Positions 17,818 to 63,400 of a stretch of 64,000 bases of DNA are shown here, in pieces. This DNA comes from a virus: positions 779 to 64,778 of the IMG/VR virus record IMGVR_UViG_3300015063_000001, one strand, 5' to 3'. A program made the translations under genes and the position numbers. The number at the start of each line of letters is the position of its first letter. The first letter of the stretch is position 1. The notes beneath the pieces were generated by a model that worked only from the letters and a program-made list of their open reading frames with translations, was not told the origin of the DNA and did no database searches.

Positions 17818-18200
17818 CTTATCCAGAAAAGTTTGCGAGCTACAAGCACCAGCCGAAGTTTCTTGACCGCGCGATGGCGGAAGAGAAGCGCGCCGATGGC
17901 GGTAAGGTCTGGCCGCAGACGGAAACCACGGACGAAGAAATGCACCGGCACGCCGACATGATCAGCGCCGCCAATACGCAGCGCGACAACGCCGACGCCG
18001 AACCAGTTGTTGTGACCGATCCAGACTATGATCGATTTGACCGCAATCGGTCGGGCCCCGCCTATTCCAAAGGGTCGCAAGGCGCTCTTCAAGAAGAGAT
18101 GGAGTCCGTGCGTTCGTCAAAGGCGATGAACCAGTCAGGCAGGAATGCCGGCCAAGGCCCTACACGCCGCAGAGCGGCCAATCCAAACGAAGGAGACTGA
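17814..18200 (+). CDS. putative internal head protein (KRADGGKV motif)
   Basis: ATGA-coupled to portal; low complexity. Confidence 0.65.
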   Translation: MTYPEKFASYKHQPKFLDRAMAEEKRADGGKVWPQTETTDEEMHRHADMISAANTQRDNADAEPVVVTDPDYDRFDRNRSGPAYSKGSQGALQEEMESVRSSKAMNQSGRNAGQGPTRRRAANPNEGD

Positions 18201-18202
18201 TC

Positions 18203-19018
18203 GTGGCACATCCGATGAAAAAGGCCGGCGTTGAGGGGCACAACGCAAAGCTCAAGAGGATGACGGAAGACTACGGCTCCGCCGACCCGTCGATGAACAA
18301 GCTCGCGCCCGACGACCTCCTGAAAAACGAAGGGCCGGAAGATGCCGTCGGTTTTGGCAGCGATGCCAGCGCGCCGACCGCGCGCGCCGATCGCGCCGGC
18401 CGCGGGCGCCGCACCACGGCCGCCAATCCGGTTTCGACCTATCGCAAGGGCGGCAGGGTCAAGCGCGCCGATGGCGGCGACGTCTCCGCGATTGAGATGG
18501 CCAACAAAAACCAGGCCTCGGCAAAGCCGATGGAGCGCGCCCGTGGCGGCCGCGCCAAACACAAAGGCACCAACGTCAACGTCATCGTGGCGCCGCAGGG
18601 CGGCACCGGTGCCGCGCCGCCGCCCCCGATGCCGCCGCTTGGCGGCCCCGGCGGTCCGCCGCCAATGATGCCGCCGAAGCCGCCGATGGGCGCCATGCCT
18701 CCGGGTGGACCGCCTCCTGGAATGCCGATGGCGATGGGTGCCCCTGGCGGGGTTCCCCCTGGAATTATGCCCCCTCGTAAGAGGGGTGGCCGCGTCAAGC
18801 ATGCTGACGAAGCCGAAGACAAGGCGCTGATCCAGAAAACCTTGAAGGACGAAGGTCTGATTCGCTCCGACAAGGCGGAAAAGCTGGAAGGCCGCGCCCG
18901 CGGCGGCAAGATCACCAGCATTCACGACATGACCGCCGGCAGCATGAGTGGGCCCGGCCGAATCGAAAAAGCCGAACTGCAAAAGAATGTTGGTCGCAAG
19001 GCGCCACAGGCGGTCTAG
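18203..19018 (+). CDS. Pro/Gly/Met-rich putative internal head protein with several basic-GG motifs
   Basis: SD AAGGAG upstream; YRKGG, KRADGG, RARGG, RKRGG, RARGG. Confidence 0.8.
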   Translation: MAHPMKKAGVEGHNAKLKRMTEDYGSADPSMNKLAPDDLLKNEGPEDAVGFGSDASAPTARADRAGRGRRTTAANPVSTYRKGGRVKRADGGDVSAIEMANKNQASAKPMERARGGRAKHKGTNVNVIVAPQGGTGAAPPPPMPPLGGPGGPPPMMPPKPPMGAMPPGGPPPGMPMAMGAPGGVPPGIMPPRKRGGRVKHADEAEDKALIQKTLKDEGLIRSDKAEKLEGRARGGKITSIHDMTAGSMSGPGRIEKAELQKNVGRKAPQAV

Positions 19019-19020
19019 TT

Positions 19021-19572
19021 TTGTCAGGTCTCGATCAGGACACTTTGCGCGCGTTGGTTCATTATGAGCCAACGACAGGCGTTTTTACGTGGCTGCCGCG
19101 CAAGCCGATTAGCAAGAGCGTGAAGATGTGGAATGGAAAGTTTGCGAATAAGCCGATAACCATTCTCGACTCATACGGCTATATCCAGATCAACATCACG
19201 ATAAATGGTGTTGCAAAACACTATAAGGGCCATCGCCTCGCGTGGCTCTACGTTTATGGGGAGCATCCAAAGTCTGAAATTGACCACGTCAATCAGATAA
19301 GGACCGATAACAGAATATCGAATTTGCGGTTGGCGTCGAAAGCCGAAAATCAATACAATGTTACGCAGCCGCGTAAGCATAATATGAGCGGCGAGAAGGG
19401 GGTCAAATGGTGCCCCAGAGACAATAATTACATGGCCAGAATCGTTGCCGGCGGAAAGGAAATTTATCTTGGGAAATTCAAAGATATTGAATCCGCCAAG
19501 GCAGCGTATAGCGCTGCGCATATTAGATACGCGAAGCAGTTTTCGCCTTATTTGAATGAGGCGGCAGCATGA
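19021..19572 (+). CDS. HNH homing endonuclease with AP2 domain
   Basis: HRLAWLYVYG...IDHVNQIRTDNRISNLRLA; AP2-like SGEKGVKW...YLGKFKD. Confidence 0.9.
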   Translation: MSGLDQDTLRALVHYEPTTGVFTWLPRKPISKSVKMWNGKFANKPITILDSYGYIQINITINGVAKHYKGHRLAWLYVYGEHPKSEIDHVNQIRTDNRISNLRLASKAENQYNVTQPRKHNMSGEKGVKWCPRDNNYMARIVAGGKEIYLGKFKDIESAKAAYSAAHIRYAKQFSPYLNEAAA

Positions 19573-19811: not shown

Positions 19812-20219
19812 ATGCCGCCGATGTTGATGACGCACACCACCGACCCGCGCGACGATATCTACAAAAAGATTGGAATGAAGCGGGATCTGACAATCCCCGG
19901 CTTTTACTTGTACGGCAACCGGGTTTTGATCGGCATCTATCTGCGGCCGGAAAAAACAAAATCTGGCATCATCCTTTCCGACCAGACCCGCGATGAAGAC
20001 AAGCATCAAGGCAAAGCCGGTATCGTTCTCGCGATGGGTCATTCAGCCTTCAAATCCGACGATCATTTCAGTTTTGGGCCAGACGAATTGAAGGTCGGTG
20101 ACTGGATCATGCTGTTTGTATCACATGGCTTGAAATGTGCCGTGAACGGGCAGGAATGCCGCATCATTCGCGACCAAGACATCACCATGAAAATTCCGGC
20201 GCCTGACGCCGTATTCTAA
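19812..20219 (+). CDS. groES: GroES-like co-chaperonin
   Basis: GNRVLI..EKTKSGIILSD...GIVLAMG...KVGDWI...GQECRIIRDQDI. Confidence 0.8.
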   Translation: MPPMLMTHTTDPRDDIYKKIGMKRDLTIPGFYLYGNRVLIGIYLRPEKTKSGIILSDQTRDEDKHQGKAGIVLAMGHSAFKSDDHFSFGPDELKVGDWIMLFVSHGLKCAVNGQECRIIRDQDITMKIPAPDAVF

Positions 20220-20236: not shown

Positions 20237-21289
20237 ATGGCTGACAATGACGCGACCGTTACCGTGGAAGACGAGGCTGTTGTCACGGTCGACGTGACGG
20301 ATCATCCCGAGCTCGCCGCCGCCGTCGATAACGAAATTGAAGCCGCTCCGGCGCCGAAACCGGCGAAGGAAAGGGCTGCGAAGGCTTCCGGCGCCGTCGA
20401 TGAGGCCGCGGCCGCGCTTATCAAGACGGCTGACGACGCCCGTATTGCTGCCCTGGCAACGGCCGAAGCCGAGCGCCAGCGCGCGAACAACGCCGAGCGG
20501 ATCGCCACGCAGCGGGCCACCGAAGCGGAAGGCTACCGCGGCCAGGCGGAAGAGCAGCAACTCACAATCCTGACAAACGGCATCGACAGCGCGAAGCGCG
20601 AGGTTGCGTCCGCAAAGCAGGACTGGCGGAATGCCCAGGAAGCCGGTGATTTCGACAAGGCGGCGGATGCGCAGGAGCGTCTAGCGAAGGGTGCCGCCGC
20701 CGTCGATCGGCTGGAGGCGGCCAAGGCCGAGTTTGACGCGGCGCCGAAAAAGCCGACAGCCGAGGGGCGTGTCGAAGCGGCACCGGTGCCGCAGCAGGTA
20801 TCGGCGTTCGAGCGCTACGTCTCCGGCTTCCCGCCGCAGGCACAGGCGTGGCTCCGTTCCCATCCGGAATGCGTCCCGCCGCAGGTTGGCGGCAACCCCA
20901 CCAAAAACGCCGCGATGATGAAGGGCCATTACGCCGCGCTCGAGCAGAATATTGTGGAAGGCAGCCCGGACTATTTCCGCGTCATCGAAGAGACCACCGG
21001 GTACCGGGCGCCGGTTTCCGCCGCCGCTCAAGTCACTCAGGCCGGCGAAGAGCCAGCCCCGAAGCCTGCCCAGCGCCGGCAGGTACAGCCATCGGCGCCG
21101 GTCAGTCGTGACCCGCCGGCCGGCCCCGGCGTACCGCGCACGACGCGGTCTGTCTCGCTGAACCCGGAGCAGCAGGCGACCGCGAAGTTCTCCTTCCCGC
21201 ACCTACCACCGCAACAGGCGTTTGCCGAATACGCCAAGAATCTGATCGAACTCGAGGCCGAAGGTAAGCTCGGCCGGACCAGCCATTAA
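20237..21289 (+). CDS. head scaffolding protein
   Basis: SD GAGGGA; Ala/Glu-rich coiled coil; lies between portal and capsid. Confidence 0.7.
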   Translation: MADNDATVTVEDEAVVTVDVTDHPELAAAVDNEIEAAPAPKPAKERAAKASGAVDEAAAALIKTADDARIAALATAEAERQRANNAERIATQRATEAEGYRGQAEEQQLTILTNGIDSAKREVASAKQDWRNAQEAGDFDKAADAQERLAKGAAAVDRLEAAKAEFDAAPKKPTAEGRVEAAPVPQQVSAFERYVSGFPPQAQAWLRSHPECVPPQVGGNPTKNAAMMKGHYAALEQNIVEGSPDYFRVIEETTGYRAPVSAAAQVTQAGEEPAPKPAQRRQVQPSAPVSRDPPAGPGVPRTTRSVSLNPEQQATAKFSFPHLPPQQAFAEYAKNLIELEAEGKLGRTSH

Positions 21290-21899: not shown

Positions 21900-23078
21900 A
21901 TGTTTCTGAACTATAAATATCGGCTCATACCAAACAAGCGCCAGCATAGGGCGCTTGCGGATATCTGTGAGTCTCAGCGGCAACTCTACAACGCCGCACT
22001 TGAGGAAAGAATCGACTGCTATCGCAAGACTGGCAAAGGCCGTTCCTACTTCGATCAATGCAAGGCCGTGACAGAGTGTCGTCACGCCTTGCCAGAGATG
22101 GGTGCATTGCCGGCCAATCTCCAGCGGTGGACGCTAAAGCGTTTGGACGACGCTTATGCTGGGTTCTTCCGCCGCTGCAAGACAAACGGCAAAGCTGGAT
22201 TTCCGCGCTTTCGCGGTAAGGGCTGGTGGAGCAGTTTCGGGTTTGCCACGTTCAGTGGCGTCGAGTTTGACGGTAAGCGGCTTCGTTTCAAGGGATTTCC
22301 AGGCGGCTTGCGCGTTCATATCTGCCGTCCGCTTCCACAGGATTGTAGAATAACATCCTGCGTTTTCAACCGCGACCACAAAGGCTGGAACGTCTGTTTC
22401 CAGATCGAGGTCGCGGCGGCAGAGAAAAAGGCGATTGCAAGCGAGGTCGGCATCGACGTCGGGCTTATCGCTTTCGCCTACCAAAGCGACGGCGTTGCAA
22501 TTCCTGCACCGCAGTTTGCGCGGCGCGCTGAGCGTGAAATGCGCCGTAGACAGCGCGCTTTGGCCCGCTGCAAAAATGGCTCCAACTGCCGCAAGAAGGC
22601 GAAGGAGCGCGTCGCCCGTCTGCACCGCAAGATCGTTAATGTTCGCACCACTTGGCTGCATCAGCAGTCGGCGCGCATCGTAAATTCATACGATTTAATC
22701 GCCGTTGAAGATTTGAAAGTCGCCAATATGGTTAGGAATGGCCATTTGGCGCGTTCAATATCCGATGCGTCGTGGTCTACTTTCACAAATATGCTGTCCT
22801 ATAAAGCTGAAAAGGCTGGTGGGACCTTCGTGAAGGTTGACCCAAGGATGACTTCGCAAATCTGTTCTGGCTGCGGAGTGGTTGTGAAAAAGGGCTTGGC
22901 TGATCGGGTGCATTCGTGCCCTGATTGCGGACTAACTCTTGATCGCGATCACAACGCGGCGATAAACATTTTGCACCGGGCTGGGAATCGTCCGGGGGCC
23001 GCTAACGTGATCCAAGTTTGGGATGAGCGTTGGCCCGGAAACATGCCAGAGGCTCCCGCAAGGGGGCGAGTGGTATAA
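21900..23078 (+). mobile_element. tnpB: TnpB RNA-guided endonuclease (IS200/IS605 superfamily), no tnpA nearby
   Basis: N-terminal YKYRLIPN; GFPRFR; RuvC GIDVG, AVEDL and DRDHNAAINI; zinc finger CSGCG...CPDCG. Confidence 0.92.
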
Positions 23079-24178: not shown

Positions 24179-25105
24179 ATGGCAATCAACGTCACAGCCA
24201 TTCGTGATCTCCTTCTCCCTGGTCTCCGTGGGGTCACCGGCGAATACAAGCAGTGGGCCTCGATCTGGCCGAAACTGTTCGACCAGGGCAAGTCCGAAAT
24301 GGCGCAGGAGCGCACCGCTTCCATGCGGTTCCTCCCGCTGGCGCAACTCAAGTCGGACGGTGGTCAGACTTTCTTCGACAACGGCAGCGGTGAGGCTTTC
24401 GTCTACAACCAGCTTCACACCGGCATCGGCCTTGGTTACGCGATCACCCGCAACACGATCGCGGACAATCTCTACAAGGCGCAGTTCCGGCCGTCGAACC
24501 TCGGCCTGCAGCGCAGCTTCGCGCAGACCAAGGAAATCTACGCCGCGGCGGTGTTCAACAACGCCACGACCTACGACAGCACGGTTGGCGGCGATGGTGT
24601 CGCGCTTCTGAGCACCGCGCACCCACTGCCGTCCGGCGGCTCGGGCCCGGCGACTTGGGCGAACGCGCCGACGACCAACGTGGACCTCAACGAGTCGAGC
24701 CTGCTCAACGGCATGATCTCGATCCAGACCGGGTTCTACGACAACGCTGGTCTCCGCATGATGGCGACCGGCAAGACGCTGGTCATTCATCCGAACAACG
24801 AGCCGGTCGCGCTGCGCCTGCTCCGCGCCGAGCGCCGGCCCGGCACTGCGATGAACGACCCGAACGTGATCCCGATCACGGCCGGCGGCGTCACCGAATA
24901 CGTCAAGGACGTGTTCTTCACCTCGCCGTACCCCTGGTACATCAAGACCGACCAGCCCGGCCTGCTATACCTCGAGCGCGAACCGTTCGAGATTGATATG
25001 CAGGTCGACTTCACCACGGACAACCTGCTGGTGAAGGCCTGGGAAAGATACTCGTTTAATTATAACGATCCCCGCAGTTTATGGGGTTCCTCTCCCACGT
25101 CTTAA
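24179..25105 (+). CDS. major capsid protein (Mu gpT-like)
   Basis: 308 aa; very strong codon bias; GLGYAITR..IADNLY, GGDGVALLSTAHP, DFTTDN..KAWERYSF. Confidence 0.9.
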   Translation: MAINVTAIRDLLLPGLRGVTGEYKQWASIWPKLFDQGKSEMAQERTASMRFLPLAQLKSDGGQTFFDNGSGEAFVYNQLHTGIGLGYAITRNTIADNLYKAQFRPSNLGLQRSFAQTKEIYAAAVFNNATTYDSTVGGDGVALLSTAHPLPSGGSGPATWANAPTTNVDLNESSLLNGMISIQTGFYDNAGLRMMATGKTLVIHPNNEPVALRLLRAERRPGTAMNDPNVIPITAGGVTEYVKDVFFTSPYPWYIKTDQPGLLYLEREPFEIDMQVDFTTDNLLVKAWERYSFNYNDPRSLWGSSPTS

Positions 25106-25143: not shown

Positions 25144-25144
25144 A

Positions 25145-25885
25145 ATGAAAAAGGCGAAATACGAGAGCGGTATTCCTGGTGTGTATTGGGATAAGTCGCA
25201 CAACTCTTGGAGAGTTAATCTAGAGAGCGGCGGCAAGAAAACGTACCTAGGCCGCCGTAAGACTCTCGAAGAGGCGACAAAGTTAAGGTTGGATGCCGAG
25301 GTCGGTATCCTGCCAACGGATGAGGAAAAGAAGTCACGGCTTTTCGACAAGATGGCCCGCATAAGGATGCGAGCGGTTTGGAGAGAGGCGACGAATGGCG
25401 ATCACGGTTGGAAGTCGTTTGATGATTTTGTGATTAGCGTTGGCGATCGACCGAAAGTTGAGCGCCGGTTAGTTGCAAAGGACGAAAGCCGACCCATTGG
25501 GCCAGATAACTTCCAGTGGGTTCGACCGAGATACGACCATCAAACTAAGGAGGGTCGTAGCGAATACCAGAAGGCTCATAGGATGGCGAACCCTATGAGT
25601 TACCGAGACGGAGAATTTAGGAGACGGTTTGGTATAACTCTCGCTGACTACCAAGCCAAGTTTGTAGAGCAAAAGGGTGTGTGTGCAATCTGCAGTAAGC
25701 CAGAGAGTGGCACGAGAAACGGAGTTACTCGCTGGCTTTGTGTAGATCATAACCACGATACGGATGCGGTTCGTGGTTTGCTGTGCACCAACTGTAATGT
25801 CGCCGTCGGTATGATGTTCGAGAATCGGGATATCCTGCGGTCTGCGATTTCGTACTTAGAGAAGTGGGACTGTGTTGAAGCCTAA
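25145..25885 (+). CDS. endonuclease VII-family homing endonuclease with AP2-like N-terminus
   Basis: FGITLADY...QKGVCAICS...VDHNHDTDAVRGLLCTNCN. Confidence 0.9.
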   Translation: MKKAKYESGIPGVYWDKSHNSWRVNLESGGKKTYLGRRKTLEEATKLRLDAEVGILPTDEEKKSRLFDKMARIRMRAVWREATNGDHGWKSFDDFVISVGDRPKVERRLVAKDESRPIGPDNFQWVRPRYDHQTKEGRSEYQKAHRMANPMSYRDGEFRRRFGITLADYQAKFVEQKGVCAICSKPESGTRNGVTRWLCVDHNHDTDAVRGLLCTNCNVAVGMMFENRDILRSAISYLEKWDCVEA

Positions 25886-26944: not shown

Positions 26945-27235
26945 ATGTCGAGAGCGAGACACGCGAAGCGGGCCATGGGCGGCAAGGCGGTAGCCTACGC
27001 CGGCGGCGATTCCAACGTCATGAAGGAAGCCGAAGAGCGCAAGCGCGGCGGCAAAGTCAAAGTGGAAGGCGAGGGCGAAAAGGCCAAGGCCCGCCATGAT
27101 CGTCCGAAGCGCGCCAAGGGCGGGCGGGTGAAGGGTGCTGGGATTGGCGCGAATCTAACCCCGCTCTCGACGGCGGCTAAGATTCACGAAGTTACCAAAG
27201 GCGAAGAGCAGCCGGACGCCGACAAGGACGAGTAG
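26945..27235 (+). CDS. small basic protein with three basic-GG motifs
   Basis: KRAMGG, RKRGGKV, KRAKGGRV; SD AAGGGA. Confidence 0.75.
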   Translation: MSRARHAKRAMGGKAVAYAGGDSNVMKEAEERKRGGKVKVEGEGEKAKARHDRPKRAKGGRVKGAGIGANLTPLSTAAKIHEVTKGEEQPDADKDE

Positions 27236-40985: not shown

Positions 40986-41456
40986 ATGGCACCGCCTAAA
41001 GATACGCGATCGATCAATGAAAGATTCGATTTATCATTCATTCCAGAGCCAAACTCTGGATGTTGGATATGGATGCGCGGAATTAGTAGCACTGGGTATG
41101 GCGCTTTTTGCATAGATGGGAAAACATATGGCGCTCATCGTATTTCTTATGAGCTTTATAAGGGCGCAATACCAATCAGGAAACAACTAGACCATCTTTG
41201 CAGAGTTCGATCCTGCGTTAATCCAGATCATTTAGAGATTGTCACACGTAAAGAAAATCTACGAAGAGGCGAGTCGTTTAGTGGGCTAAATTATAAGAAA
41301 ACCCACTGCATCCATGGGCACAAATTTTCTCGCGAAAACACTATATTTTATACAAAAAAGAATGGGGGCATATCTAGGCTATGTAGAAAATGCCGAGCAT
41401 GGCAATATTTAAACGTGGAAAAATTGGTCAGAGCCAATAAGAGGCGGGCACAATGA
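40986..41456 (+). CDS. HNH homing endonuclease with C-terminal zinc finger
   Basis: PEPNSGCWIW...AHRISYE...DHLCRVRSCVNPDHL; THCIHGH...CRKC. Confidence 0.92.
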   Translation: MAPPKDTRSINERFDLSFIPEPNSGCWIWMRGISSTGYGAFCIDGKTYGAHRISYELYKGAIPIRKQLDHLCRVRSCVNPDHLEIVTRKENLRRGESFSGLNYKKTHCIHGHKFSRENTIFYTKKNGGISRLCRKCRAWQYLNVEKLVRANKRRAQ

Positions 41457-48415: not shown

Positions 48416-51400
48416 ATGGCATCCCTTGATGACAGTGGCGATTGGGAAGACGTGTCTTCCCCTACGCCGCCTTCTGGTCTCAGCGCTGCGGCGCCATCGC
48501 CCCAACCTGCCGCCGCGCCGGCACAGGCCAAGGCGCCGGCCGCACAGGTGGCCGGCGGCGACGAATGGGAGGATGTCCCGCAGTGGCGGGGGTATCTGCC
48601 TGTCGCCGCGTCCGCCGTGGCCCAAAGTGCCGTTTCCTCGACTGGGTCTCTGCTCGCCGGCCTACCGGAACTGAGCGGGGACTATAATACCAAATTGCTG
48701 GCGAACCTCGATCGCATCGACCGCGGCGAAAAAGTGCCGATGGCTGATGACCCGATCGGCTATCAGGACATGGATCCTGAAACCCGCAAGCACACCAGGG
48801 CTGACGTCGAGGCGGCAAAGGCGGCTTACAAGCCGCAGGAAACGATGCTCTACAAAGCCGGCCACGCGATTAAAGAGTTCGGGGAAAAGCAGTTCCCGAT
48901 GTCGCTGGACGAACAGAAGTCGATCACGGCACAGGCTGCCGGCGTAGTCGGCGGCATGGCACCTTACCTCGCCGCCGGCGCTGTGCTCGGCCCAGAAGCC
49001 GCCGTAGGTCTCGGTATGGCCGGCATGGGCCTTTCCAGTGCCCATGAACAGGCGGAAGCCGCTCGAGCGAAAAACGCCTCGCCGGAAGCGGTGGCCGAAG
49101 CCGCGCGCATGGGCTTCTACAGTGGTGCCGCCGCGGGCGCGGTGCCGCTGCATGCCGTGATGACGCCGGTCGAACGGCTGGCGCCTGGCATCGCGGATTG
49201 GGCGCGGGCGCGGCTTCAACATGCGGCGCAGACCGGCGTTGCCTTTGCCACGCTTGGCGAAGCGCAGACCTGGCTCGGTCAACAGATCGCACAGAATTTT
49301 TATGATCCGGAGGCCGGCTACTCGCTCGATATTCAGCGCGTGCTCGGCGGCCTGCTCGGTGGTGCCTTCCTGGGTGGTATGGGTCGTACACCGTATCGCG
49401 GTGCCGAACAGCCGGCCGCGGAGAAGCCGAATCAGCACTCCGATGCCATTCAGGATATTCTCGGTGGTGAACCGCCTGGACCGCCAGCACCTCCTGGTGC
49501 TCCCGCTGTGGAGCCTGGAGAGCGTCGGCCGTACCCGGCCGAAGATGACGTTTCAATTCTCGGTGGCGATCGGCCAACCGGCGTTCCAAATGTCGACGAC
49601 TACGTTGACCAGTCGATGCGTAACCTTCGCGCGACGTCGCGCACGGTTGCCGGAACGCTGGATACCTCGTCGACCCCAGGCAAGGAAGAGAAGCTTGTTG
49701 ATGGCCTGACGCCCAAGGCTGCCGCGACACAGGCCGCCTCAAATTACGAAGGCATCGTTCGCCGGCTGTACGATTACAAAGACGATATCCCGACCACCGG
49801 CCCGGAAATGGGGACGCTGGTTAATGACGTCGCCGTTGCTGTAAACAATGGCATCGTCAAGCCGGGCCAGTTGGAGCGCACGACCAACACAAAATTCCCG
49901 ATGCAGACCAGGGCGGAGGATCTTCCGATTGCCTATGGTCAATTCTCTCAGGAATTGGCCGAGCGCCTTTCAAACCCTGCTGCGGATCCGGTCGAGACCG
50001 CGGCATGGATTGAATGGCGCGCAAACATGCTGGACCATTTCTGGACGGATGGCGTCGGCAAAACGTCGAAGGCGCTGGCGGCGATTCCTTTGATGCGGAG
50101 CGGCTTGCCGCTTCCGATCTATCCGCCGATGAAAGACTTTGTTGCGTTCGCCAAGGAACAGCCGCGCGTTGATCCGCTTGAAGGTGGCGCGGCATATCTC
50201 GGGCCGGCGTGGGAAAAATTCAATGCGTTCTACCACGACATGGTTTACCCGCAGAAAAGCCTGCAGGCCGCGCTTGATCGTGGGGCGACCGCCGACGAGC
50301 TAAGTCAGCATCCCATGGTGCTCAATGCCGTGGCGGAAAACAGCAGTCGTGTTCCAACCGGAACACCGGAGGATTTCCAGAACCCGGAATGGCGCAGCCA
50401 GCGCGTTTACAACATTAGTGGTCAGCCCGTCAGGGGTTGGGATGCCGCTGTTTCTGCCCTGACGAATCAGGCCAGCGCATATTCCGGTGGTCAGGTCGAG
50501 CATGGGCGCCATGCCGTCATTGTGCTCGGGCCCCCGGCTGCAGGCAAGTCGTCCATTTCGGAACCTGTTGCGCGGAAATATCGGGCCGCGATCGTTGACC
50601 CCGACGACGCGAAAAAGATCATTCCTGAATATCACAACGGCCTCGGCACCAGTGCTGTGCATGAGGAAAGCTCTGAACTCGCGATCGACGTCCTTAAGAA
50701 CATTGCGCGCGACGGTGGCAACATCGTCTTGCCAAAAGTAGGAGCGAGTGCCGATGGCATAAAGAAACTGGTTAACCGCTTGAAACAGTTGGGGTATACG
50801 GTCGATATCGCCCATGTGGCGGCTACACCAGAGATTTCGGCCCGGCGGAACATCGCTAGATTTCTGAATACCGGACGGCTTGTTAAGCCAGAATATATCA
50901 CTGAGGTAGGTGACAAGCCGCGCAAAACGGCCTATATGTTAAGGGGAGATGCAAATGACTTCATTGACGCCGACACATCCAAAGGCCACTACGAACTCGT
51001 CGAAGGAAACGGGCCGCTCGCCGACATTTTCCGAGATGGAAGAAATTTCGGACAAGGCGCAGATTCGGGCACTGGACGAGCTCTTGGCCGAGCGGAATCA
51101 GAAAAAGGACTGACCGGGGAGCAGGTCCCCGGCATTCCTGAACATCGCGTGACCGCTGCCGACGGCACGGCTATCGATGTCGCGCCGATCGTTGTCGAGG
51201 CATCGAGTCTCAGGACCTCTCAGGATCCCGGCTACGATACCAGCCTGCAGCCGCGGCAGCGCGATCGAGCCGCCAGCCAGGCACAGGTCCGCGACATCGC
51301 CACCAATCTCGACCCAGAACGTCTTGGCTATTCGGCCGAGGCTGATCGCGGGGCGCCGATTGTCGGACCTGACGGCATGGTGGAAAGCGGCAACGGCCGT

Positions 51401-54400
51401 GTGCTCGCGCTCCGAAGCGTTTACGAGCAAGGCGGACCGCAGGCACAGGCCTATCGGGATTGGCTGACGCGCCAGGGCGTCGACGTCTCCGGCTATCAGA
51501 ACCCGGTTTTGGTCCGGAAGCGCGTCACGCCGATGTCGCCACAGGAGCGGCGGTCGTTCACGGTCGCCGCGAACCAGGCCTCAACGCTCAGTATGTCGGC
51601 GCCGGAACGGGCGATGGCCGATGCGCGGCTGATGGATGCGCGGTCGATCGGCTTAATACGCAACGCAGAAGATATCGGCGCCCCTGCAAATCGTGACTTT
51701 GTTCGGCGTTTCGTTTCGCTGTTGCCGCAGGCTGAACAGGGGGCGATGGCTGATGCGCGCGGCGCCTTGTCGGCGGAAGGTCTGGCGCGGGTGCGTAATG
51801 CTGTGCTCGCGAAGGCCTACGGCGATGCTAGCGTTTTGGCGCGCATTGCGGAGTCGACGCACGATGAAGTCCGGTCGATTTCCAACGCCTTAACTGCCGC
51901 GGCGCCTGAGTGGGCGCGGATGCGCTCCGAAGTCGAGGCCGGCCGCGTCCGGTCTGATATGGACGCCACCCCTGATCTGCTCGAGGCAGTAAAGCGCACC
52001 GCAGATATTCGCAGCCGTGGCGAAAAGCTTGAAAACTATTTGGCGCAGCAAGACGCCTTCGACAAGATGCCGGCGCAGGTCGAGGCATTCATGCGAATGT
52101 TCTACGACCCGAAGGGCAATCGGGCAGCGGCGGCGATGCGGATTGCCCGCGCGCTGCGGCTCTATGCTCAAGAGGCTGCAAAAGTTAATGCCGATGAAGG
52201 GCTTGGTTTAGGCTTGGTCCCGGTGAAGCCGCGCGATATAACGCGGCTCGCCCTAGAACGGGAGTGGGAAGATTATGAACCAGATGCGGGAGTTTCCGAC
52301 CGCGGCGGCCTTGGTGACCGCACGGGCGGCGAAGAAGCTGGCCGGGCAGTACGGGGACCTTGGCTTGGCGAGGGCCGCAAAGGATCTCGAGAAGAGGGCT
52401 ATGGAGGCGATCAAGAATCGGCAGTCCGTGCTCAGCGACCAGAGCGCCCATTCAGCCTCAAAAACCTAACGACCGTTCCTGGTGTTGAGCAAGTCGATCT
52501 TGCCGGCGGGAAAAAGGGCGATCAATACGTCTTCCCAGGCACCGAAAAGATTTCCGCGGCCGAGCTTATGCGCCGGCGCGCGGCGGAGCCGATGCGGCCG
52601 AAGGTCGAGCAGAACACTACCGCTAGTGGCCTGTTCGGCGATGGGGCACAACAGCTAAGCCTGCTCGATGCCGCGAGGAAGGCTGCCGCAGAGCCCGTTG
52701 ACAAAGGTCCCATTGTACCCCAAATAGAGGGAACGGAGGCTGCAAATGCAAGTCGCGGAGAACCCGAAAGCGGCGGCATACGCACAGGAACACAAGAGGT
52801 TCCTGGAGGAAAACCGGCCGGACGTGCTCGCCGGGCTACGCCGATCGGGCGACCTGAACAGCTATCTCTCTTCGGTGGGGGAGCAGGCGAGCGATCTGTT
52901 TTTGACGCTAATGATGCAGTACAAAAACAGCCCGGAAATACGGAAGCTCCCGCACCTGGCGCTAGTACAAGCGTTACAAAGCCGCCGGAGGGAAGCCGAC
53001 GAGTTGGTGAGGCACGACATAATCCACCAGCCGTTGAAGGACTGAACGAAGCGCAGACCAAGATTGCGCAGCGCTCCCGCTCGAATTACCGAATTACTGA
53101 TGCCGACAAGATTGGCGAAGGTGGCCCGCGCCAGAAGATTCGCGGCAACCTCGAGGCAATCCGTATCCTCAAGACCATTGAGGATGAAAACCGCGATGCC
53201 ACGCCTGGCGAAAAGGCAGCCCTTGTGCAGTACGTCGGCTGGGGCGCCTTCGCGCAAGATATGTTCGCGCCGCACAAGACGGAATTGAAAGCGGAACGCG
53301 ATACGCTGCGATCGCTGGTCACCGATGAAGAGTTCAACGCGGCTCGAGGGTCTACACTAAACGCGCATTTCACGTCGCCTGACGTCGTCCGCGGCATGTG
53401 GGATGCCATCAATCATCTCGGCTATGACGGCGGGATGGCGATCGAGCCGGCGGCCGGCGTCGGCCATTTCATCGGCATGATCCCGGATAAGGTGGCGCCG
53501 AAGACGGCTTGGACGGCGGTTGAGCTCGACCCGCTTACCGGCCGTATCGCAAAGGCGCTCTACGGAAACGCCGAAGTCAACGTTCACGGCTTTGAGGACT
53601 TGAAGCGGCCATCGAACTATTACGATCTCGCGATCTCGAACGTTCCGTTCGGCAATTACAATATTTCGGAAAAGCCGTATGGCTCGTTTCCGATCCATGA
53701 TTTCTTTTTCGTCAAATCGCTCGACAAGGTTCGGCCCGGTGGCGTCGTCGCATTTGTGACGTCGCGCTACAGCATGGACCGCGTCGACGCCAACACGCGC
53801 CGGCTACTCGGCAAGACGGCCGATCTGGTCGGGGCCATCCGGTTACCTGGCGGCAACAAGGGCGCCTTTGCCGGCAATGCCGGGACGCAAGTCACCACCG
53901 ACGTCATGTTTCTTCGCAAGAAGATTCCGGGCGAGGCGCCGTTCCCCGGCGCCAACTGGTTTGACCTGAAAGAAATCCAAACCCCGGACGGCCCGACGAA
54001 AATCAACGAATATTTTGCCGATCATCCTGAAATGATGCTTGGTGAAATGCGGTTGCAGAGCACCATGTACCGGGACAATGAACCGGTGCTTATTGGTGAC
54101 GCCGAAGGCCTGCAGGACAGGATTGCCGCCGCGGCGCAAAACATGCCGAAGGGCGCCTTTGTCGCTCGCGACACCCCGCCGCCGCCGCCTATCCACGGCA
54201 ACGATATCGCGGCCGGCATCAAGGATGGCGCCTTCTTCTTGCAGGACGGCAAGCTGCACCAGCGCCGCGAGGGGCAGGGCTTTGCTCATCCGCTCAACGC
54301 GGAGGACCACGACCGCGTTACGCGGCTCGTCGGCATGCGCGACGTCGTCAACGATCTGTTGGCGACACAGCTTGCCGGCGGTGAGAACTCGGCAGCGCAA

Positions 54401-57400
54401 GCCGAACATGGCCGCGCCAAGCTGCGGGATGCTTATGATGCCTTTGTCGCCAAACACGGGCCGATCAATAAGGAAGAGCGCACCGTAACCAGCCGGCTTA
54501 ACAAGCTTGGCGAACCGGTGACAATCACTCGGTATCCGAACATCGCTAAGTTCATGGCGGATCCTGACGCTTGGAAAGTTGCGGCGATCGAGAACTACGA
54601 CACCGAGACCGGAAAGGCGAAGCGGGCCGATATCCAGACCAAGGATGTCATCGACGCGCCGATGGAACGCCAGATCAACGGGCCGTCCGATGCTCTGGCG
54701 GCTTCGTTGGACTTCACCGGCGGCGTCGATCTCGACCACATCGCACAGTCTCTCAATTTACAGACGCAGGAAGACGTCGTTCGCCATCTTGGCGATTTGG
54801 TCTACCAGAACCCGGACGGCCGGAAATGGGAGACCGCCGATAGTTACCTGTCCGGCGACGTGGTCAAGAAGCTTGATGATGCCCGCGCCATCGCCGCCGA
54901 AGACACGTCGTATATGCGCAACGTGTCAGCGCTCGAAAAGGTCCAGCCGGAGCCGTTGACCGGCTCAGACATCACGGCGCAGTTCGGGGCGCCATGGGTT
55001 CCAGGCGACGTCTACGAAAGCTTCCTCAAGGAAATCGGCGGTCAGGGCGTCAAGGTCAAGCTGGTCCCGTTGACCGGGGAATGGCGGTCAAGCGCCACGA
55101 TGTATTCCCGCGATGCCAGAGCAAAATATGGAACGGATCGTGTTGAGACAGCAAAGATAGTCGATGCCGCCCTCAACAATAGGCAGATCACGGTTTGGGA
55201 TGAGCACAGCGATGGAAGCAAGTCAGTCAACGAAAAGTCTACCACGGAAGCCAGGGTTAAGACCGAACTGCTGAAAGAGACGTTCACCGGCGACCAGGAA
55301 CACGGCATCGACGGCTGGGTGTTCGCAGATCCGGAGCGCGGCCAACGGTTGGAGGCGATCTACAATCGCACATACAACAACCTTGTGCAGCGCAAGTTCG
55401 ACGGCACGCACCTGACGCTGCCTGGGCTCAATCCTGATTTCGCGACACGCCAGCACCGCAAGGATGCAGTTTGGCGGATCGTCCAGAACGGCAACACGTT
55501 GCTTGCACACGACGTCGGGACTGGAAAAACCGCGACAATGATTGCGGCGGCGATGGAGCAAAAAAGACTTGGCTTAATTAATAAGCCGATGATGGTTGTT
55601 CCAAATCATATGTTGGAACAGTTCTCGCGCGAGTTTATCCAGGCGTATCCAGACGCTAAGATTTTGGTCGCGCAAAAAGACGAGATGACCAGGGAGAACC
55701 GCAAGGCGTTTCTGGCGCGCGTGGCGTCCAACGATTGGGACAGCGTCATCATTACGCATGATGCCTTCGGTCGCATTAACATGGGGCAGGAGTTCCGCAG
55801 GGCCTTCATCCGCGACCAACTCGACGAATTGGATCGGGCCATTAAGGCGGAAGCCGCTGAAAGCGATAAGAAGTCGCCGACGGTAAAGAGCTTGGAAAAG
55901 GCAAAAAAGAAGCTGCAGGGGCGGCTTGAAAATTTGATGAATGAAGAGCGCAAGGATGCTGGGACCAATTTTGAAGAATCCGGCGTCGATAATCTCTTCA
56001 TCGATGAAGCGCATTGCTTCCCATACAATACGATGGTCCAGACAGATCGCGGTCCAATCAAAATTGGTGAGATCGTTGAGAGGCAACTATCGGTTTCTGT
56101 CGCCAGCATAGATCACCGGACCGGTCGCCTTATATGGAATCCGATCCACAATTATTGGCGGCACAATCGCGGCAATAAGCAGTTTGTGCTTGTAAAAACC
56201 GATAAATCTGACATACTTTGCACAGTCAATCATCGAGTATTTGTGGATGGGCGAGGGTATGTCAGGGCAGATGAAATCAAGCCGGGAGAGGCTTTGCGCG
56301 CTTTGCCAGAGGCCGTTTGTGCCAGCGTCGCGCGGCAGACTTGGGAATACCCAGAAGCATTGCTCGCGCCAGTGTGCGAAAACGGCAGCCAAGAAACTAG
56401 TAGAAAAGAATTGCGAACTGTGCGGCGAGCCGTTTCAGTTTCGCAGTTCTGGAAAGACGAACAACGACAAGCGACGGTTTTGCGGCAGTCCATGTGCGGC
56501 GTCATGGCGGATGGCGCAGCCTGGGCGGATGGAGAAGTCCGCGCCGATGTGGGCCGCTTCGCGGAAGAAATGGTTGGAGCCAGAATACAAGGCCATGATG
56601 GCGTCGGCATCATCAAAAAGAATGCTTGCCGACAACCCGATGTCAAACGCGGATATCCGGCAGAAAGTCAGCGTGTCGCTGAGCGGGCGGACTTTTCTAT
56701 CTCGCGGCGGCAACGGCCAGCCGACGAAGCCGCAGTTGCTACTGCATGGCTTGACCGGTCTTCCCATGGAATATGCAATACTGACGAAGCCAGTGCACGG
56801 TCGATTTCAGAGTCTGCCGCAATGCTACAAGGTGGATTTGGCGGACCCGGTGCGCAAGTTGGCTATAGAGGTGGACGGCAACAGCCATCGTTCTCGGAAA
56901 TGGAAGTTTCTGGACCGACGCAAGACAGAAATACTGAATGCGCTCGGGTGGTCAGTGTTGAGATTCTCGAACGAGGAAGTGATCGCGAACCCAGAACTGG
57001 TGGTTCAGAAGATAGCTTCGTTTATGATCTCGGCGTCGCCGGCGAGCACAATTATTTCGCCAATGGAGTCCTAGTCCACAACTCGTTCAAGAACCTAGCT
57101 TTTATAACTCGTATGCAGCGCGTCAAGGGCTTGGCGCAGGGTGATAGCCAGCGCGCCGAAGACCTGTTCCTCAAGATTCAATACTTGGAACAGAAGCGGC
57201 CGGGGCGAGCGGCGGTGTTTGCCACCGGGACGCCGGTCTCTAACACGATGGCCGAGCTTTGGACGATGCAGCGGTATTTGAACCTGCGTGCGTTGAAAGA
57301 GCGCGGACTGGATACGTTCGATTCCTGGGCTTCGACCTTCGGCCGCGTCGTCAACAATATGGAATTGTCGGCTGACGGTCGCACCTTCAAGGAGGTGTCG

Positions 57401-60400
57401 TCGTTCTCGAAGTTTGTCAACGTGCCGGAACTGGTGTCTCTGTATTCAGAGATCGCAGATACAAAAACGGCGGACATGCTGAAACTGCCGACGCCGGATG
57501 TCAAAACCCGCAGCGGGGCGCCCGGCATCGAGATCGTCCAGGCGGAGCCTTCTTCCCAGGAAGAAGCGCACATCCAGAAATTGGTCGAACTCGCGGAATC
57601 GCTCAAAGGCAAGCGCCCTGAAAAGGGCCAGCCGAACATGCTGAGCGTGGTGACGGAAGGCCGCAAGGTCGCCACCGATGGTCGGCTGATTTCGCCTGAT
57701 TTTGATTTCAACCCGCAGGGCAAGATCGCCCTGGGCGTCAACAATATCCATCGCATATGGGAAGAGGGCAACGCTGACCCGTCGGCGCCGAACAAGGTGC
57801 AGATGGTGTTCCTCGACATGGGCGTACCGAAGAGCAAGGCCGCGGCAAAGAAGAAGCCGGCTGACGTCGATCTCGAGGAAGGTGCCGACCCGGCACAGGA
57901 AGCGGCGCCGCGCATCGACCTGTACGCCGACATCAAGAAGCGCCTTGTCGACGCCGGCATCCCGGCGAAAGAGATCGCAGCAATTCATGACGCGACGGAC
58001 GACGACAAGAAGGCAAAACTGTTCCAGAAGGTCCGCAACGGTGAAGTCCGGGTTATCTTGGGATCATCCGGAAAGATGGGCGTCGGCACAAACGTCCAAG
58101 ACAAACTTATCGCGATGCACCACTTTGACGCACCGTGGAAGCCAGCGGATGTCACGCAGCGCGACGGCCGTATCGTGCGGCAAGGCAACAAGAATAAGGA
58201 CGTGCAGATCTACCGCTATGTCACGAAGCGCTCTTTCGACGCCTTCATGTGGCAGAAGCTTGACACCAAATCGAAGTTTATCGGGCAGGTTTTGTCGGGG
58301 GCGAAGGGCTCCCGCCACGCCGAAGACATCGACAACCCGCTGCCGGAAGCTGCGGAAATGAAGGCGGCCGCGTCTGGTGACCCGCGGATTATAGAGCACG
58401 CCGAACTCGATCGCCAGGTCCGCGCCTTGTCGGCGCAGCGTAGATCGTTTGACGCGACGAAATCGCGGGCGCAGTGGGAAACCGGAACGGCAAAAACCCG
58501 TATTCAGGGATACGAGGACGCATTGCCGAACGCCAAGGCCGATGCTGCCAGCGTGCAGGATTTGGCCGGCGACAAGTTTAGCGCTGAGCTCGGCGGCTCG
58601 GTGGTGACTGATCGCAAGGTGGCCGGGCAGGCAATCCTAGATCGGTTATTGGCTGTTGATGCCCGCACCTTCTACACGCCGAAGATTGTCACGCTCGGCA
58701 AGCTGTCCGGCTTCGATATGAACGTCGAACTGCGTGGCGGCTGGGATGGCTCGTCGGCCATTCTGCGGGCGCAGCCGTCACTCAAAGGCAAGAGCGGCTA
58801 CGGCACGCCGAACGATACGGTCATTAATGCGCAGACCGATCCCGGCGGCTTGATCCGCCGGTTTGAAAATATCCTCGGTAACATCCGGCAGAACCCGGAC
58901 CGGTTGGAACGCGAGTTGGCCGGCGAAAAGGACAGCGTTGCGAAACTCGAAAAGACCTTGGGCGAGACATGGCCGAAGGAAAATGATTACCGCGCCGCGC
59001 TGGATAAGCTTCATGCGCTGAGCGAGTCGTTGAAGGCGCCGAAGCATCCCGACGTCTTTACGGAAGAGGTGAAGGAGCGCCGCGGCGGCTGGGATCAGGC
59101 CGAAGGCCGCGACATGGGCCCGAAGCTTGGCGAGACCGCCGTTCGTATCGGGGCAAAAACGGAAGCCCATATCAAGCCGACCGAGCGCTACACGGCGGCT
59201 GAGAAAAAGATTGCCAACGCTGTTGCCGAGATCGGTCAGCGCATGGCGCCGCAGGCCGACGTCAGGGGCGCAGCCGCGCTCCGGCAGAACGGCAATCAGA
59301 TATGGGGTGCCTTCGTCAACAGCGAGGCCTTCCCGCACCTTGTCGCGTGGTCTCTCGAAAAGGGCAGTCCGGCCCAGATTGCCGGCACGGTGCGCCATGA
59401 AATTGTCCATCATCTCCGTGAGGCCGGTTTGATCCGTCCGAACGAATGGGCGGCATTACGCGATGCGGCGGTCAAGGATGACTGGCTCGGCAAGCATAAC
59501 ATCGAGGACCGCTATCCGGACCTTTCAATGGACCGCAAGGTGGAAGAAGCCGTTGCCGAACAGTTCTCAAAATGGCGCACTGAACGGTCGATCGAAAAGC
59601 CAGGCCTGATCCGGGACGCCTTCCAGCGGATCGAATTGCTGTTCCGCCGTGTGGCTGCGGCGGCGCGCAGCTTCATGGGCAAGGATGCCACCGCCAATGA
59701 CGTCTTCACTAGGATTGAAACCGGCGAAGTCGGCGCTCGCCATTCCGACCAGATCGAGGCGCAGAAGCGGTATTTGGCACAAGACAACCGCGAGGCCGCG
59801 CAGACGCCGGGCGAAGAGAACCGGAAGCGGCGCGAGTTTGCGCGCGGTTTGCCCGGCGCGGAGCCGACCATTCGTGATAGGATAGTGCAGGCTGCCGATG
59901 CTCTGCGGGCTAAGGCGGCCGAGTTCTCTGAGAAGATTGGCGTCGATCAAATCGTCCGTGACATGCAGATGCGCGTGGCGCCGATGGCGGCGCGTGACGC
60001 CACCGTGCAGTCCCGCGCGATCGCCAAGGAGTTCATCAACGCGCGCCGGCAATCCAGGCAATCCTGGAATGCCGCCGACAAATACATCATGGACAATTTC
60101 CCGCCGGAGCGCCGCAAGGCTATGTGGGATGCCGCTGACGAGCAAAGCGTTGCGATGCAGCGCGGCCGGTCGACGGTGGGGATCGGCCTCGACCGTCTGC
60201 CACCGGATGAACGGCGTGTTGTCGAAATGCTGCAGGCCCGTGGTGAGCGCAATCTGAAAGACGCCAACGATCTCGGTATGATCGAAAGCGAAGGCCTTCC
60301 GAGCTACGCGCCGCGCATGGTGGTCCGCATGGCGGAAGGCAAATACGAGCATGGGGCTGGCCCCGGTGCCGAAGTGGTTCGTGACGTCCGAACCTTGGCG

Positions 60401-63400
60401 CTCGCCAACGCACGGCTCGAAGACGCCATTGCGGCGCGGCGCCTTATCAACTCTATCGAGGAAGTCGGCAAAAGGAGTGGTAACCCGACCGTCAACGATG
60501 GCGGGGCTCCGACGCGCAAGATTGGTGCGGAAGGCCAAATCGCGAATGTTCTCGACCAGATCGGTCGCGGCGTCTCGACGTCGACGCCGCAGTTGAAGCA
60601 CCGCAAGTATCTGACGACGGAAGAAACCGAAGCGGCGGCCAATAAGGTTCCGGTGGCCGATAAGAATGCCCCGGATTGGTTCACGCTCAATCACCCGGCG
60701 TTTACGAAGCTTATGCCGCGCATGACCGACTCTGACCCGAAAACCTATCGGGATGCAGTCAAGCGCGTCAGCGGCATGACCGTCGAAAACAAGCAGGTCC
60801 CGGCCCGCGATGAAGACGGCAATATCATCTATGACCGCAAGCCGATTTACGTCCGGGCCGATTTCGAGGGTCCGCTTCGCGCCGTTCTTTCCAAGGACAC
60901 CGACCGCACCTACCGCGCCTTGATGGCCCTCAAGGGCAAGGTGATGTCGGTTATCATGATGTCGCCGCTTATCCACAATCAAGTGGAATGGGGCCGCGCG
61001 CTGCCGGTGGCACCTGGCAAGGTGGTCACGTTCCAGACCTATCTCGAGGGCAACAAGGTTGCCAACGATCCGAAACTTATGAACCGCGCCATTGCTGGTG
61101 GCGTCGTCCCGATCGGCGGACACGGCTATATGCAGGATATCGTGTCGATCGCGGAAGCGCCGACGGTGCGGCCTGGCCGGTCGTTGACGGCCAAGGGCTT
61201 GGGCTACGGCGCCGAAGGCCTCGGGTATCTGACGCGGCTTTATAACCCGCGCTCAGGCGCTAATGAAGTTCGCAATGCCGTCGATTGGTTCGGAAACGTT
61301 TGGCACAACCGGATGCTTTGGGACCGCATTCGTGACCTGCAAATGGGTCTGTGGTCGCACGTCAATGAAACTATGGTCGGTAAAGGATATGATCCTTATA
61401 GCGCCAACGTGGCGGCGGCACACTTTGCAAACCGATATGCCGGCGCACTGCCGATTGAAGCGATGTCTGGCATCGCCCGCGGCATTGCCAACGTCTTGCT
61501 GTTCTCGCGGAGCTTCACGCTCGGCAACCTAGGCGCCTACAAGGACGCCATCCTCGGGCTGCCGCGTGACGCACAGGCGATGATCCAGCAAAACGTCGGA
61601 TACGCCGAATTACAGAAGGTTCAGAGTTACGTGAAACGAAAGTCGCTGGCGATGCTGGCGATCGACGCCGGGCTTTATTACGCGACATTGTCGGCCCTGC
61701 AGAGCGCGTTCAACGTGGCCGGCGTCGGCCATACCGTCAGCACGCTCGGCGGCATGATTGCCGGCGGCGCCCTTGGCGGCAAAGGCGGCACGTTCGGCCG
61801 GTTGGCTGCGGCGGCGGGTATGGGCGCGGCCGGGTTCGGGCTTGCCAGCGTTCTCGGCGCGTCAAAGGGTACCCGCGATCTTGAGGACGAGCTCGGCCGG
61901 TACTGGACCAGGTTCTCCGATCTGCTTGGTCGTGTTGGCGAGCATCCGTTTGAAACGATTGGCAACCCGTTCAAGATGCTGGAGTCGCTCGGCTCGACTG
62001 CGGAAAATGAGCCCGGCAAGAAGAGCCGCCTGCTGATCGGCTACCAGCCTGACGGCACGGCGATCTACGCGCGCCTCGCGGTCGGCAAGGTCACAGAAGA
62101 GTTGATGGGCTACATGACCGAGCCGAACGAGATGCTTCATCGTAAGCTGAGCACCTTCGCCAGACCGTTGTCGCAACTTTATAATAACGACGCCGGCTTT
62201 GGGCATCCGGTGTATGACAAAAAAGCTGATACGCCGTACGCTGTCACGAAGAACATTATCAAAATTGCCGCCCTGATTGTCGGTGACCAGATACCGGTCG
62301 ACACCATCAAGGGTGCCATGGACTGGTACGGCGGCGGACCGGGCTCCGAAGTGTCTGGCATGAAGGCGATCGCGCCGTTCATCGGCACGACGATCTCAAA
62401 GGGCTTCCCTGGTGGGCCCGAGCTCGGCGTATTGCAGGACGCAAAGGATCGGCAGAAATACCGAGTGCAGGAAGCGTTGCCCGGCATCCGCGAGCAAATC
62501 AAAAAGGGCGATACCGAAGGCGCAGTAGCCAAGATGGAAGAACTGCATATCCCGCGCGGGCTGCAGGGCTACTACATTCGCACGACGCAAGACCCGGCAT
62601 CGCGGCTCTCCAAGCGCGAGATGCACGATTTCATGCAATACGCCTCGCCGGACGAACAGCGCGAGTATGAGAACACGCAGCGGAACAGGCCGACTACGGA
62701 CGGCTCGGCACCGAAGCGCGCCGATGGCGGAAAGGTGGAGGCTGACTACGACACCGCGCTAACGCCGGATGAAGAGGCAAGCTTCCAACAGTGGAAGGCG
62801 GACAATGCACCGCACGATTCTGGCGCGGACTATGACCTCCGTGGTGCGTTCAAGGCCGGCCTGTCGCCCGCCGCCGATGGTCATTGGGATGACACCTTCA
62901 AAAAGCCGAACCATCCGACTTTCAGCATCTATTCCAAATATGCGAAGGATCGGCCGGAGTTGGCCGGGACATGGAATGGCGATCAATACATCCCGCCCGT
63001 TCCTGCCCGCGCGCACGGCGGCCGCGTCGAGGCGGCAAACATCAATCACAATCCGACTGAGGCGCAGAAGCACGCCGGCAACTACGCAAAAGATCACGTA
63101 AGAATCCACGGCCACGACATCACCATCGAGAACGCCAAAGGCAAACGCCGGCACGGCGTTGGTCAAGACGGCAAGCCATGGTCCGCCGTGCTCGGGGCAC
63201 ACTACGGGTATTTTAAAAAATCTGAGGCCAGAGATGGCGATCATGTCGACTGCTACCTCGGCCCGCACATCAAGTCCCCGCACGTCTTTGCCATCGATCA
63301 AGTCGACCACAGGACCGGCAAATACGACGAAGCAAAAATCTGTCTTGGTTTCGCAAACGAAAAGCAGGCGTTGCGCGCCTATGAGGCCGGGTTCTCGGAT

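Follow-up and report, generated by a model that had tools for sequence, protein, structure and literature searches.

The 64,000-nucleotide stretch of viral DNA analyzed here (the window; IMG/VR record IMGVR_UViG_3300015063_000001, positions 779 to 64,778), which is 64 kb of an 81.6-kb viral contig with a CheckV completeness of 98%, encodes six proteins, probably all carried inside the head of this short-tailed phage, that share a short motif built around Gly-Gly: a basic or aromatic residue, Ala or Lys, any residue, Gly-Gly, Lys or Arg, and Val or Ile. We tentatively favor the view that this motif is a docking or address tag for proteins of the head interior, and that the tag would be bound rather than cut. 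Such a short, portable Gly-Gly address tag looks to be undescribed. The papers searched on podovirus internal proteins, HTVC027P, HTVC023P and CRP-901 yielded no Gly-Gly packaging or cleavage motif.

As we envisage it, the core (hydrophobic or basic)-A/K-x-G-G-x-V/I probably folds into a tight turn at the Gly-Gly pair with a short strand on either side, and in every case it sits in a disordered linker or terminus. A repeated site within the assembling head would read it without cutting; the portal barrel or wing, the scaffold and the capsid's inner face are candidates for this reader. Recruitment into the procapsid would follow for any tag-bearing polypeptide, which would be held in a portal-proximal core until ejection. 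Cargo enzymes and ejection proteins bear one to six copies, the 96- and 271-residue proteins, which are little more than tags, could act as a multivalent glue or matrix of the core, and in many phages the same tag stands after a conserved 45-residue leader and before interchangeable cargo domains.

The motif is strongly enriched and confined to one class of proteins. We compared the 58 proteins of the window (19,848 residues) with 2000 within-protein shuffles that preserve composition. RAxGG occurs 12 times where 1.0 is expected, GG[KR][VI] nine times where 1.75 is expected and [RK][AKR]xGG[KR][VI] eight times where 0.04 is expected, counts that none of the 2000 shuffles reaches; plain GG is not enriched (189 observed, 171 expected). 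All 19 matches to a loose form of the motif fall in proteins of 128, 271, 96, 387, 1240 and 5034 residues, and the scan of the 58 proteins finds none in portal, capsid, tail, fiber, early or replication proteins. The 17 kb of genome outside the window contains only three loose matches, which is chance level. A preliminary description of this DNA had listed the copies and noticed none in the portal, capsid or tail proteins; each listed copy indeed lies in frame at the stated coordinates, and the confinement to head-internal and ejection-class proteins agrees with it.

That the motif is an accident of composition in basic, Gly/Ala-rich, low-complexity proteins of a GC-rich genome is scarcely credible. 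The tagged proteins are rich in Arg, Ala and Gly, and CGC-GCC-...-GGC-GGC are favored codons; nevertheless, the shuffles fall short of the observed counts, the tag is conserved in alignments, and it recurs in hundreds of metagenomic proteins as well as in the low-GC relative HTVC027P. Because synonymous codons vary between tag copies and the low-GC HTVC027P also carries the motif, the motif is a feature of the protein, and the codon variation rules out a DNA-level repeat.

From homology and gene position, we infer that the six tagged proteins are head-internal or ejected. They comprise a DarB-like polyvalent protein, a homologue of a 'DNA ejection protein', small post-portal and post-capsid proteins, and a member of a leader family annotated 'virion protein' elsewhere. 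The 1240-residue protein matches phrog_4287 ('DNA ejection protein') over residues 3-283 and phrog_24990 over residues 775-897, and its tags cluster in the linker that separates these two recognized domains; its counterpart in the nearest deposited genome (uncultured MW202675.1, portal identity 48%) is annotated as internal virion protein D and is also tagged. The 5034-residue protein matches phrog_10089 ('DarB-like antirestriction', E = 0) and the Pfam families ddrB-ParB (5e-35), Zeta_toxin, ResIII/SNF2, Helicase_C and InPase (8e-43). Its modules are a zeta-toxin-like kinase, ddrB-ParB, a methyltransferase/helicase containing an intein, a glycine-zipper hydrophobic segment, a 90-residue module and InPase, and its size, modules and position in the virion block assign it to the polyvalent (DarB-like) packaged proteins. 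It has just two tags, both near the C-terminus. The placement at module junctions proposed in the preliminary description holds in part: copies stand before the last two modules of the giant protein and in the inter-domain linker of the 1240-residue protein, whereas at least eight other domain junctions of the giant protein lack one.

Structure prediction places the tags in disordered regions. An AlphaFold2 model of residues 4760-5034 of the 5034-residue protein, built with 51 sequences, gives a confident InPase core (predicted local distance difference test, pLDDT, above 90) and a 90-residue module of two helices (pLDDT 73-88). Both tags fall in linker stretches with pLDDT below 55, and the tag before InPase lies below 50. 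The 271-residue protein, modeled with its alignment, is disordered (mean pLDDT 58, predicted template modeling score 0.18) and its tags are unstructured. Given the low pLDDT of these stretches, the tag is a short linear motif that belongs to linkers and to no fold. We also rejected the idea that RAxGGRV is an integral strand of InPase: the motif falls outside the Pfam domain, is predicted to be disordered and is missing in distant InPase homologues.

Other members of the lineage show the same pattern. Among 80 viral contigs whose portal is related (44-75% identity), tag density reaches 4.45 per 1000 residues in the interval from the portal to the GroES-like gene, as against 0.04 per 1000 residues 5' of the portal (about 100-fold lower), zero in the portal and 0.33 per 1000 residues 3' of the GroES-like gene; matches on the opposite strand are few. 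These relatives encode a multi-tag protein of 220-710 residues with up to 11 copies just 5' of the GroES-like gene, of which the 271-residue protein is the local member, and a small multi-tag protein 3' of the capsid gene that is the counterpart of the 96-residue protein. Homologues of the latter with two to four copies occupy this place in L012 (13146-13763), L019 (18345-18617) and L079 (21382-21795). In MW202675.1 the motif occurs in the large post-portal proteins, in a 382-residue protein with six copies, and in the internal virion protein D homologue and its neighbor. We treat the automatic 'yenB' label on the multi-tag protein of MW202675.1 as an artefact, which may stem from Y-x-x-G-G-K-V repeats resembling YD repeats.

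The consensus of 364 distinct instances is R at -6, R/K/Y/H/L/M at -3, K/A at -2, G-G, then R/K, V/A/I and K/H/G, so that conservation spans about nine positions on both sides of the glycines. In an alignment of the 271-residue family (53 homologues, mean column identity 28%), nine of the 20 invariant columns fall within the 35 of 267 positions that form tag cores (p = 2.5e-4). Judged by these alignments, the tag is under selection. In the 128-residue family, the N-terminus M-x-Y-P...P-K-F...E is invariant and RADGG follows in six of eight aligned members. The 271-residue protein has more than 500 homologues, none with a Pfam domain, and in related contigs its homologue sits just upstream of the GroES-like gene; a tblastn search with it against deposited phage genomes gives no match. 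Searches of solved structures with the 271-residue family profile and the 387-residue protein return low-complexity noise or nothing.

The tag is also portable between cargoes. RAxGGRV stands directly upstream of the InPase module in 30 of 72 homologues, mostly the closest ones and in varied architectures, and is absent from distant InPase proteins. In related phages InPase also occurs as a stand-alone protein, with RAAGGRV at residues 6-12, in a phage whose cargo block is split into several genes, or RATGGRV at residues 45-51. The 90-residue module has a tag just upstream in nine of 51 homologues. In relatives, ART-PolyVal, LPD23 and phage-lysozyme domains occur in the tagged post-portal proteins, and the tags stand between the domains. 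Residues 1-43 of the 387-residue protein match phrog_2423 (E = 1e-10), a leader of about 45 residues (MPL..S...AF..N.K.E..AGKP..Q.LAIA) that heads at least 681 representatives of 50%-identity clusters ranging from 46 to 1359 residues in length. A tag immediately follows the leader in 129 of 146 leader proteins, often recurring thereafter (11.5 per 1000 residues), and variable cargo comes next; one member is leader-tag-InPase, and another is encoded between the terminase gene and a P22/SU10-type portal gene. It is possible, and we hold this with less confidence than the address tag itself, that leader plus hydrophobic-A-x-G-G-x-V/I constitutes a general, portable cargo-addressing code of tailed phages that is read by a conserved head component. 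Such a code would serve many unrelated lineages (HTVC023P-like podoviruses, phages whose portal is of the P22/SU10 type, perhaps also crAss-like ones), would allow any domain that bears it to be loaded into the capsid and injected, and would be a phage analogue of encapsulin loading peptides or secretion signals.

Across this wider family (404 instances), M/Y/F/L is conserved at -3, A at -2 and V/I two residues past the glycines (in 73%), M, E and D predominate after GG, and net charge does not exceed zero in 171 instances. The hydrophobic nature of the conserved positions and the many non-positive instances point to recognition by protein and not by charge, and the basic flanks found here are therefore a local variation on a hydrophobic recognition core. 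This observation bears directly on the proposal that the motif is a DNA hook, a non-specific contact of the AT-hook kind in which the Gly-Gly backbone and neighboring Lys/Arg would clasp the packaged DNA, anchor internal proteins on the genome and neutralize charge. Multi-copy motifs in disordered protein do recall the AT-hooks of HMGA proteins. The flanks in this genome are strongly basic, with net charges of +17 for the 271-residue protein and +8 for the 96-residue protein. Moreover, T7 gp7.3 contains RKKARAGG-KK, whose K84/K85, immediately behind GG, touch the end of the DNA within the tail channel (PMC11784390), and T7 gp6.7 ends in RKSAFGGKK. The T7 proteins resemble those described here in being small, basic and virion-borne, in being encoded next to the portal and ejected, and in carrying ARAGGKK or SAFGGKK near the C-terminus; they differ in having a single copy each, without enrichment in gp14-16, and no homology is detected between gp7.3 or gp6.7 and the tagged proteins. 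A DNA hook, however, accounts neither for the retention of A(-2) and V/I where positive charge is lost nor for the entry of proteins into the procapsid ahead of DNA, and we consider it unlikely.

A look-alike occurs in a packaged and ejected podovirus protein of an unrelated phage order. The cargo protein C1 (gp45) of PhiCrAss001 is modeled in the virion over residues 214-245 and 425-552 (Bayfield et al., 2023, PMC10172136). Its sequence has A-x-G-G five times and KKAKGGKVR at the C-terminus. The copies border the ordered segments, which sit on the portal and within the tail barrel, and one of them, A-F-G-G at 425-428, falls within the modeled chain. The inner copies differ from those described here in having F/Y at -1 and no basic flanks, and the motif is not mentioned in PMC10172136. 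The flanking arrangement, like the location of tags in disordered linkers between folded modules, would also suit a flexible hinge or threading point at which cargo unfolds or bends as it passes module by module through the portal-tail channel. A hinge, though, needs glycine alone; it explains neither the conserved flanks nor the proteins that consist of little but tags, and most junctions of the giant protein do without the motif. We judge this reading quite improbable.

A further question is whether the motif is a proteolytic maturation site, cut at Gly-Gly or behind it by a protease of the phage or the host. Such cleavage, likened to T4 head maturation or adenovirus core processing, would free InPase, the 90-residue module and leader-borne cargo, and would dice the tag-only proteins into small basic peptides. 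It fits the exposed, disordered linkers immediately N-terminal of folded modules and the leader-tag-cargo order; x-G-G is the P2-P1 pair of adenain, the African swine fever virus pS273R protease, C39 peptidases and ubiquitin-like proteases, and the P22 ejection protein gp7 is trimmed by the host protease OpdA just before KGGKGG. A six-frame search of the genome nevertheless finds no S78, S77, ClpP, S49, C39, C48, C5 or MPTase-PolyVal family, the negatives including PF00770, PF02902 and PF03412, and none of the head-module proteins matches a protease. Stand-alone cargo keeps its tag five residues from the start (residues 5-12), conservation continues on both sides of the glycines, and the PB1-like phages possess a head protease, yet their leader lacks GG. 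In addition, the capsid protein is short and the scaffold separate, as in T7/P22-type heads; T7 and P22 need no head protease for maturation. We also rejected a signal-peptidase-like A-x-G|G site, since Lys is as frequent as Ala at position -3.

Cleavage is accordingly disfavored, and we regard it as unlikely, although a novel or host protease could have escaped the family search. An uncut tag is preferred because a genome that is 98% complete encodes no recognizable protease, because separately encoded cargo retains its own tag and because the 5034-residue protein contains two copies only, not one per junction; the PhiCrAss001 look-alike inside a modeled chain would argue in the same direction. 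The preliminary description had offered a head-targeting signal or a processing site. The first of these stays plausible, given its class specificity, its place in disordered linkers beside appended domains and its conservation across the lineage, and the second is not borne out.

Several observations weigh against an uncut address tag. The leader-tag-cargo order and the tags at domain N-termini also fit a removable propeptide. In PB1-like myoviruses the leader is a 68-residue 'virion protein' whose gene comes after those for the portal and MuF and which lacks a Gly-Gly tag, so that in proteins with both elements the leader could be the real address instead of the tag. Some post-portal proteins of relatives lack a recognizable copy, and Caulobacter phage RW and Roseobacter phage CRP-902, which have the same head module, exhibit little or no tag enrichment; the tag is therefore not obligatory for such heads. 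Furthermore, the reader of the tag is a proposal, packaging of the six proteins is judged from homology and gene position, and the PhiCrAss001 parallel is a hint drawn from motif resemblance.

Comparison with known systems places the putative address tag between several precedents. In T4, the capsid-targeting sequence of IPI-III and Alt is a short peptide on unrelated, head-internal, injected proteins that can be transferred to foreign cargo. The likeness lies in a short peptide common to otherwise unrelated interior proteins; however, the T4 sequence is single, N-terminal, about ten residues long, ends in L/I-x-E and is removed by gp21, whereas the tag described here is internal, N-terminal or C-terminal, often repeated and built on Gly-Gly, in a genome that encodes none of the proteases searched for. 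Copies in the window are internal, repeated or C-proximal, and only some stand-alone proteins carry the tag near the N-terminus; the consensus does not end in L/I-x-E, and the six-frame search finds no S77/S78 protease. Encapsulin cargo-loading peptides are Gly-containing motifs in disordered extensions that dock, uncut, inside an HK97-fold shell. They differ in being C-terminal, with a consensus of about GSLxIGSLK, and in belonging to bacterial nanocompartments, not phages; no copy in the window is C-terminal, and in relatives several tags lie within 25 residues of the C-terminus (for example, 945 of 970 and 1224 of 1250). The adenovirus protease cuts (M/I/L)-X-G-G|X sites in core and cement precursors, the enzyme being adenain, a packaged cysteine protease. 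Here too an x-G-G motif is common to many virion-interior proteins, but P4 is hydrophobic in adenovirus and is A or K here, and no Peptidase_C5/C48 relative is found in this genome. Finally, portal-adjacent genes of the MuF/SPP1 gp7 type encode packaged products with interchangeable effector domains (Iyer et al., 2017, PMC5512222). The DarB-like giant protein contains ddrB-ParB and InPase domains defined in that study; the anchor there is a folded MuF domain, whereas the shared element here is a motif of 8-10 residues. No MuF domain is found here, and PMC5512222 describes no such motif.

If the address-tag reading is correct, packaged cargo would become predictable from sequence in uncultured phages, including the abundant marine and freshwater relatives of HTVC023P-type pelagiphages, the plugging of new effector domains into the injected set would be explained, and the tag could be used to load phage particles with reporters or enzymes. 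As background to the choice of head cargo in short-tailed phages, only the cleavable N-terminal signal of T4 is, to our knowledge, known in detail, and we know of essentially nothing on cargo selection for protease-less T7/P22-type heads or for huge polyvalent anti-defence proteins.

Table 1. Tagged proteins, their tag copies and neighboring genes, in coordinates of the window.
Feature	Coordinates	Strand	Remarks
128-residue post-portal protein	17814-18200	+	One tag; start overlaps the portal stop codon
Tag KRADGGKV	17886-17909	+	
271-residue multi-tag protein	18203-19018	+	Five copies; disordered; Pro/Met/Gly-rich middle
Tag TYRKGGRV	18437-18460	+	GG invariant in family
Tag KRADGGDV	18461-18484	+	Less conserved in family
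Tag ERARGGRA	18533-18556	+	R-A-x-G-G-R nearly invariant
Tag PRKRGGRV	18773-18796	+	R and GG invariant
Tag GRARGGKI	18890-18913	+	GG invariant
96-residue protein	26945-27235	+	Three tags and an acidic tail; 3' of capsid gene
Tag KRAMGGKA	26966-26989	+	
Tag ERKRGGKV	27035-27058	+	
Tag KRAKGGRV	27107-27130	+	
387-residue protein	41816-42979	+	Leader (residues 1-43), tag, Pro/Met-rich linker, C-terminal domain
Tag NRARGGPV	41933-41956	+	Directly after leader
Tag ERASGGFN	42449-42472	+	
Weak variant MKFSDGGS	42764-42787	+	Misfits the A/K position; membership doubtful
1240-residue ejection/internal virion protein	44617-48339	+	Six copies in central linker (residues 291-620)
Tags LMARGGAV and GRASGGVV	45487-45534	+	Adjacent
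Tag HRADGGRI	45994-46017	+	
Tags VYRRGGAV and RFASGGIA	46369-46419	+	
Variant GYADGGSP	46456-46479	+	
5034-residue DarB-like polyvalent protein	48416-63520	+	Pfam and PHROG matches
Tag KRADGGKV	62714-62737	+	Residues 4767-4774; before 90-residue module
Tag ARAHGGRV	63005-63028	+	Residues 4863-4870; 11 residues before InPase domain
Large terminase	11526-13250		
T7-type portal	15328-17817		829 residues
GroES-like gene	19812-20219		
Probable scaffold	20237-21289		350 residues; acidic coiled-coil
Capsid protein	24179-25105		308 residues
GNAT acetyltransferase	44060-44620		
Homing-endonuclease/TnpB insertions	19021-19572, 21900-23078, 25145-25885, 40986-41456, 43054-43716		

Further features of the tagged proteins were noted. 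The invariant start of the 128-residue family, M-S/T-Y-P-E-K-G-A (17814-17840), resembles residues 17-23 of P22 gp7, S-Y-P-E-K-G-G (L093, 9369-10058), where OpdA removes the first 20 residues at the resembling site, before KGGKGG; the resemblance is too short for homology. In the 5034-residue protein, an intein interrupts the helicase domain (56054-57082, residues ~2547-2889; Pfam Intein_splicing, E = 7e-11). Residues ~4420-4490 (61670-61900), some 280 residues upstream of the first tag, form a hydrophobic Gly/Ala-zipper, GGMIAGGALGGKGGTFG...AAGMGAAGFGLASVLGA, that looks like a membrane-insertion element of an ejected protein. The 90-residue module (62738-63004, residues 4775-4863) recurs with 60-75% identity in no fewer than 51 metagenomic proteins that differ widely in length and in where they carry it; it has no Pfam family and is therefore an undescribed portable domain.

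The window also contains tail and fiber genes, and the remoter relatives of this genome are pelagiphage HTVC027P, Roseobacter phages CRP-901 and CRP-902, and Caulobacter phage RW. The order of the head module is portal ... GroES-like, scaffold-like, ~190 residues, ~200 residues, capsid, with the GroES-like gene fixed in the module of all relatives examined, tagless ones included. That this gene always follows the multi-tag gene gave rise to the idea of the tag as a mimic of the GroES mobile loop (K-S-A-G-G-I-V-L), which we rejected: no hydrophobic tripeptide follows GG in the tag, and a normal loop, KSGIIL, is already present in the GroES-like protein of the phage. Four HNH/EndoVII homing-endonuclease genes and one TnpB-type transposase gene are interspersed among the structural genes, and the virion module, counting the intein of the giant open reading frame, is thus heavily colonized by selfish elements.

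In this genome, as in MW202675.1 and CRP-902, the GNAT gene lies directly 5' of the gene for the ejection protein, and the Lys-rich tags would be possible substrates of the acetyltransferase. In the portal (17250-17817, residues ~640-829), the last ~110 residues are His-rich and periodic (ADQQH, ADRVH, ADRAH, ADQAH, ARTH, DNLH, DRSH) and probably form a long barrel helix, and the portals of close relatives end in similar DRQH/DRAH units. Many tags in relatives are likewise flanked by His (HHADGG, GGKVHG), and a metal- or His-mediated contact of the portal's barrel with the tags is conceivable.

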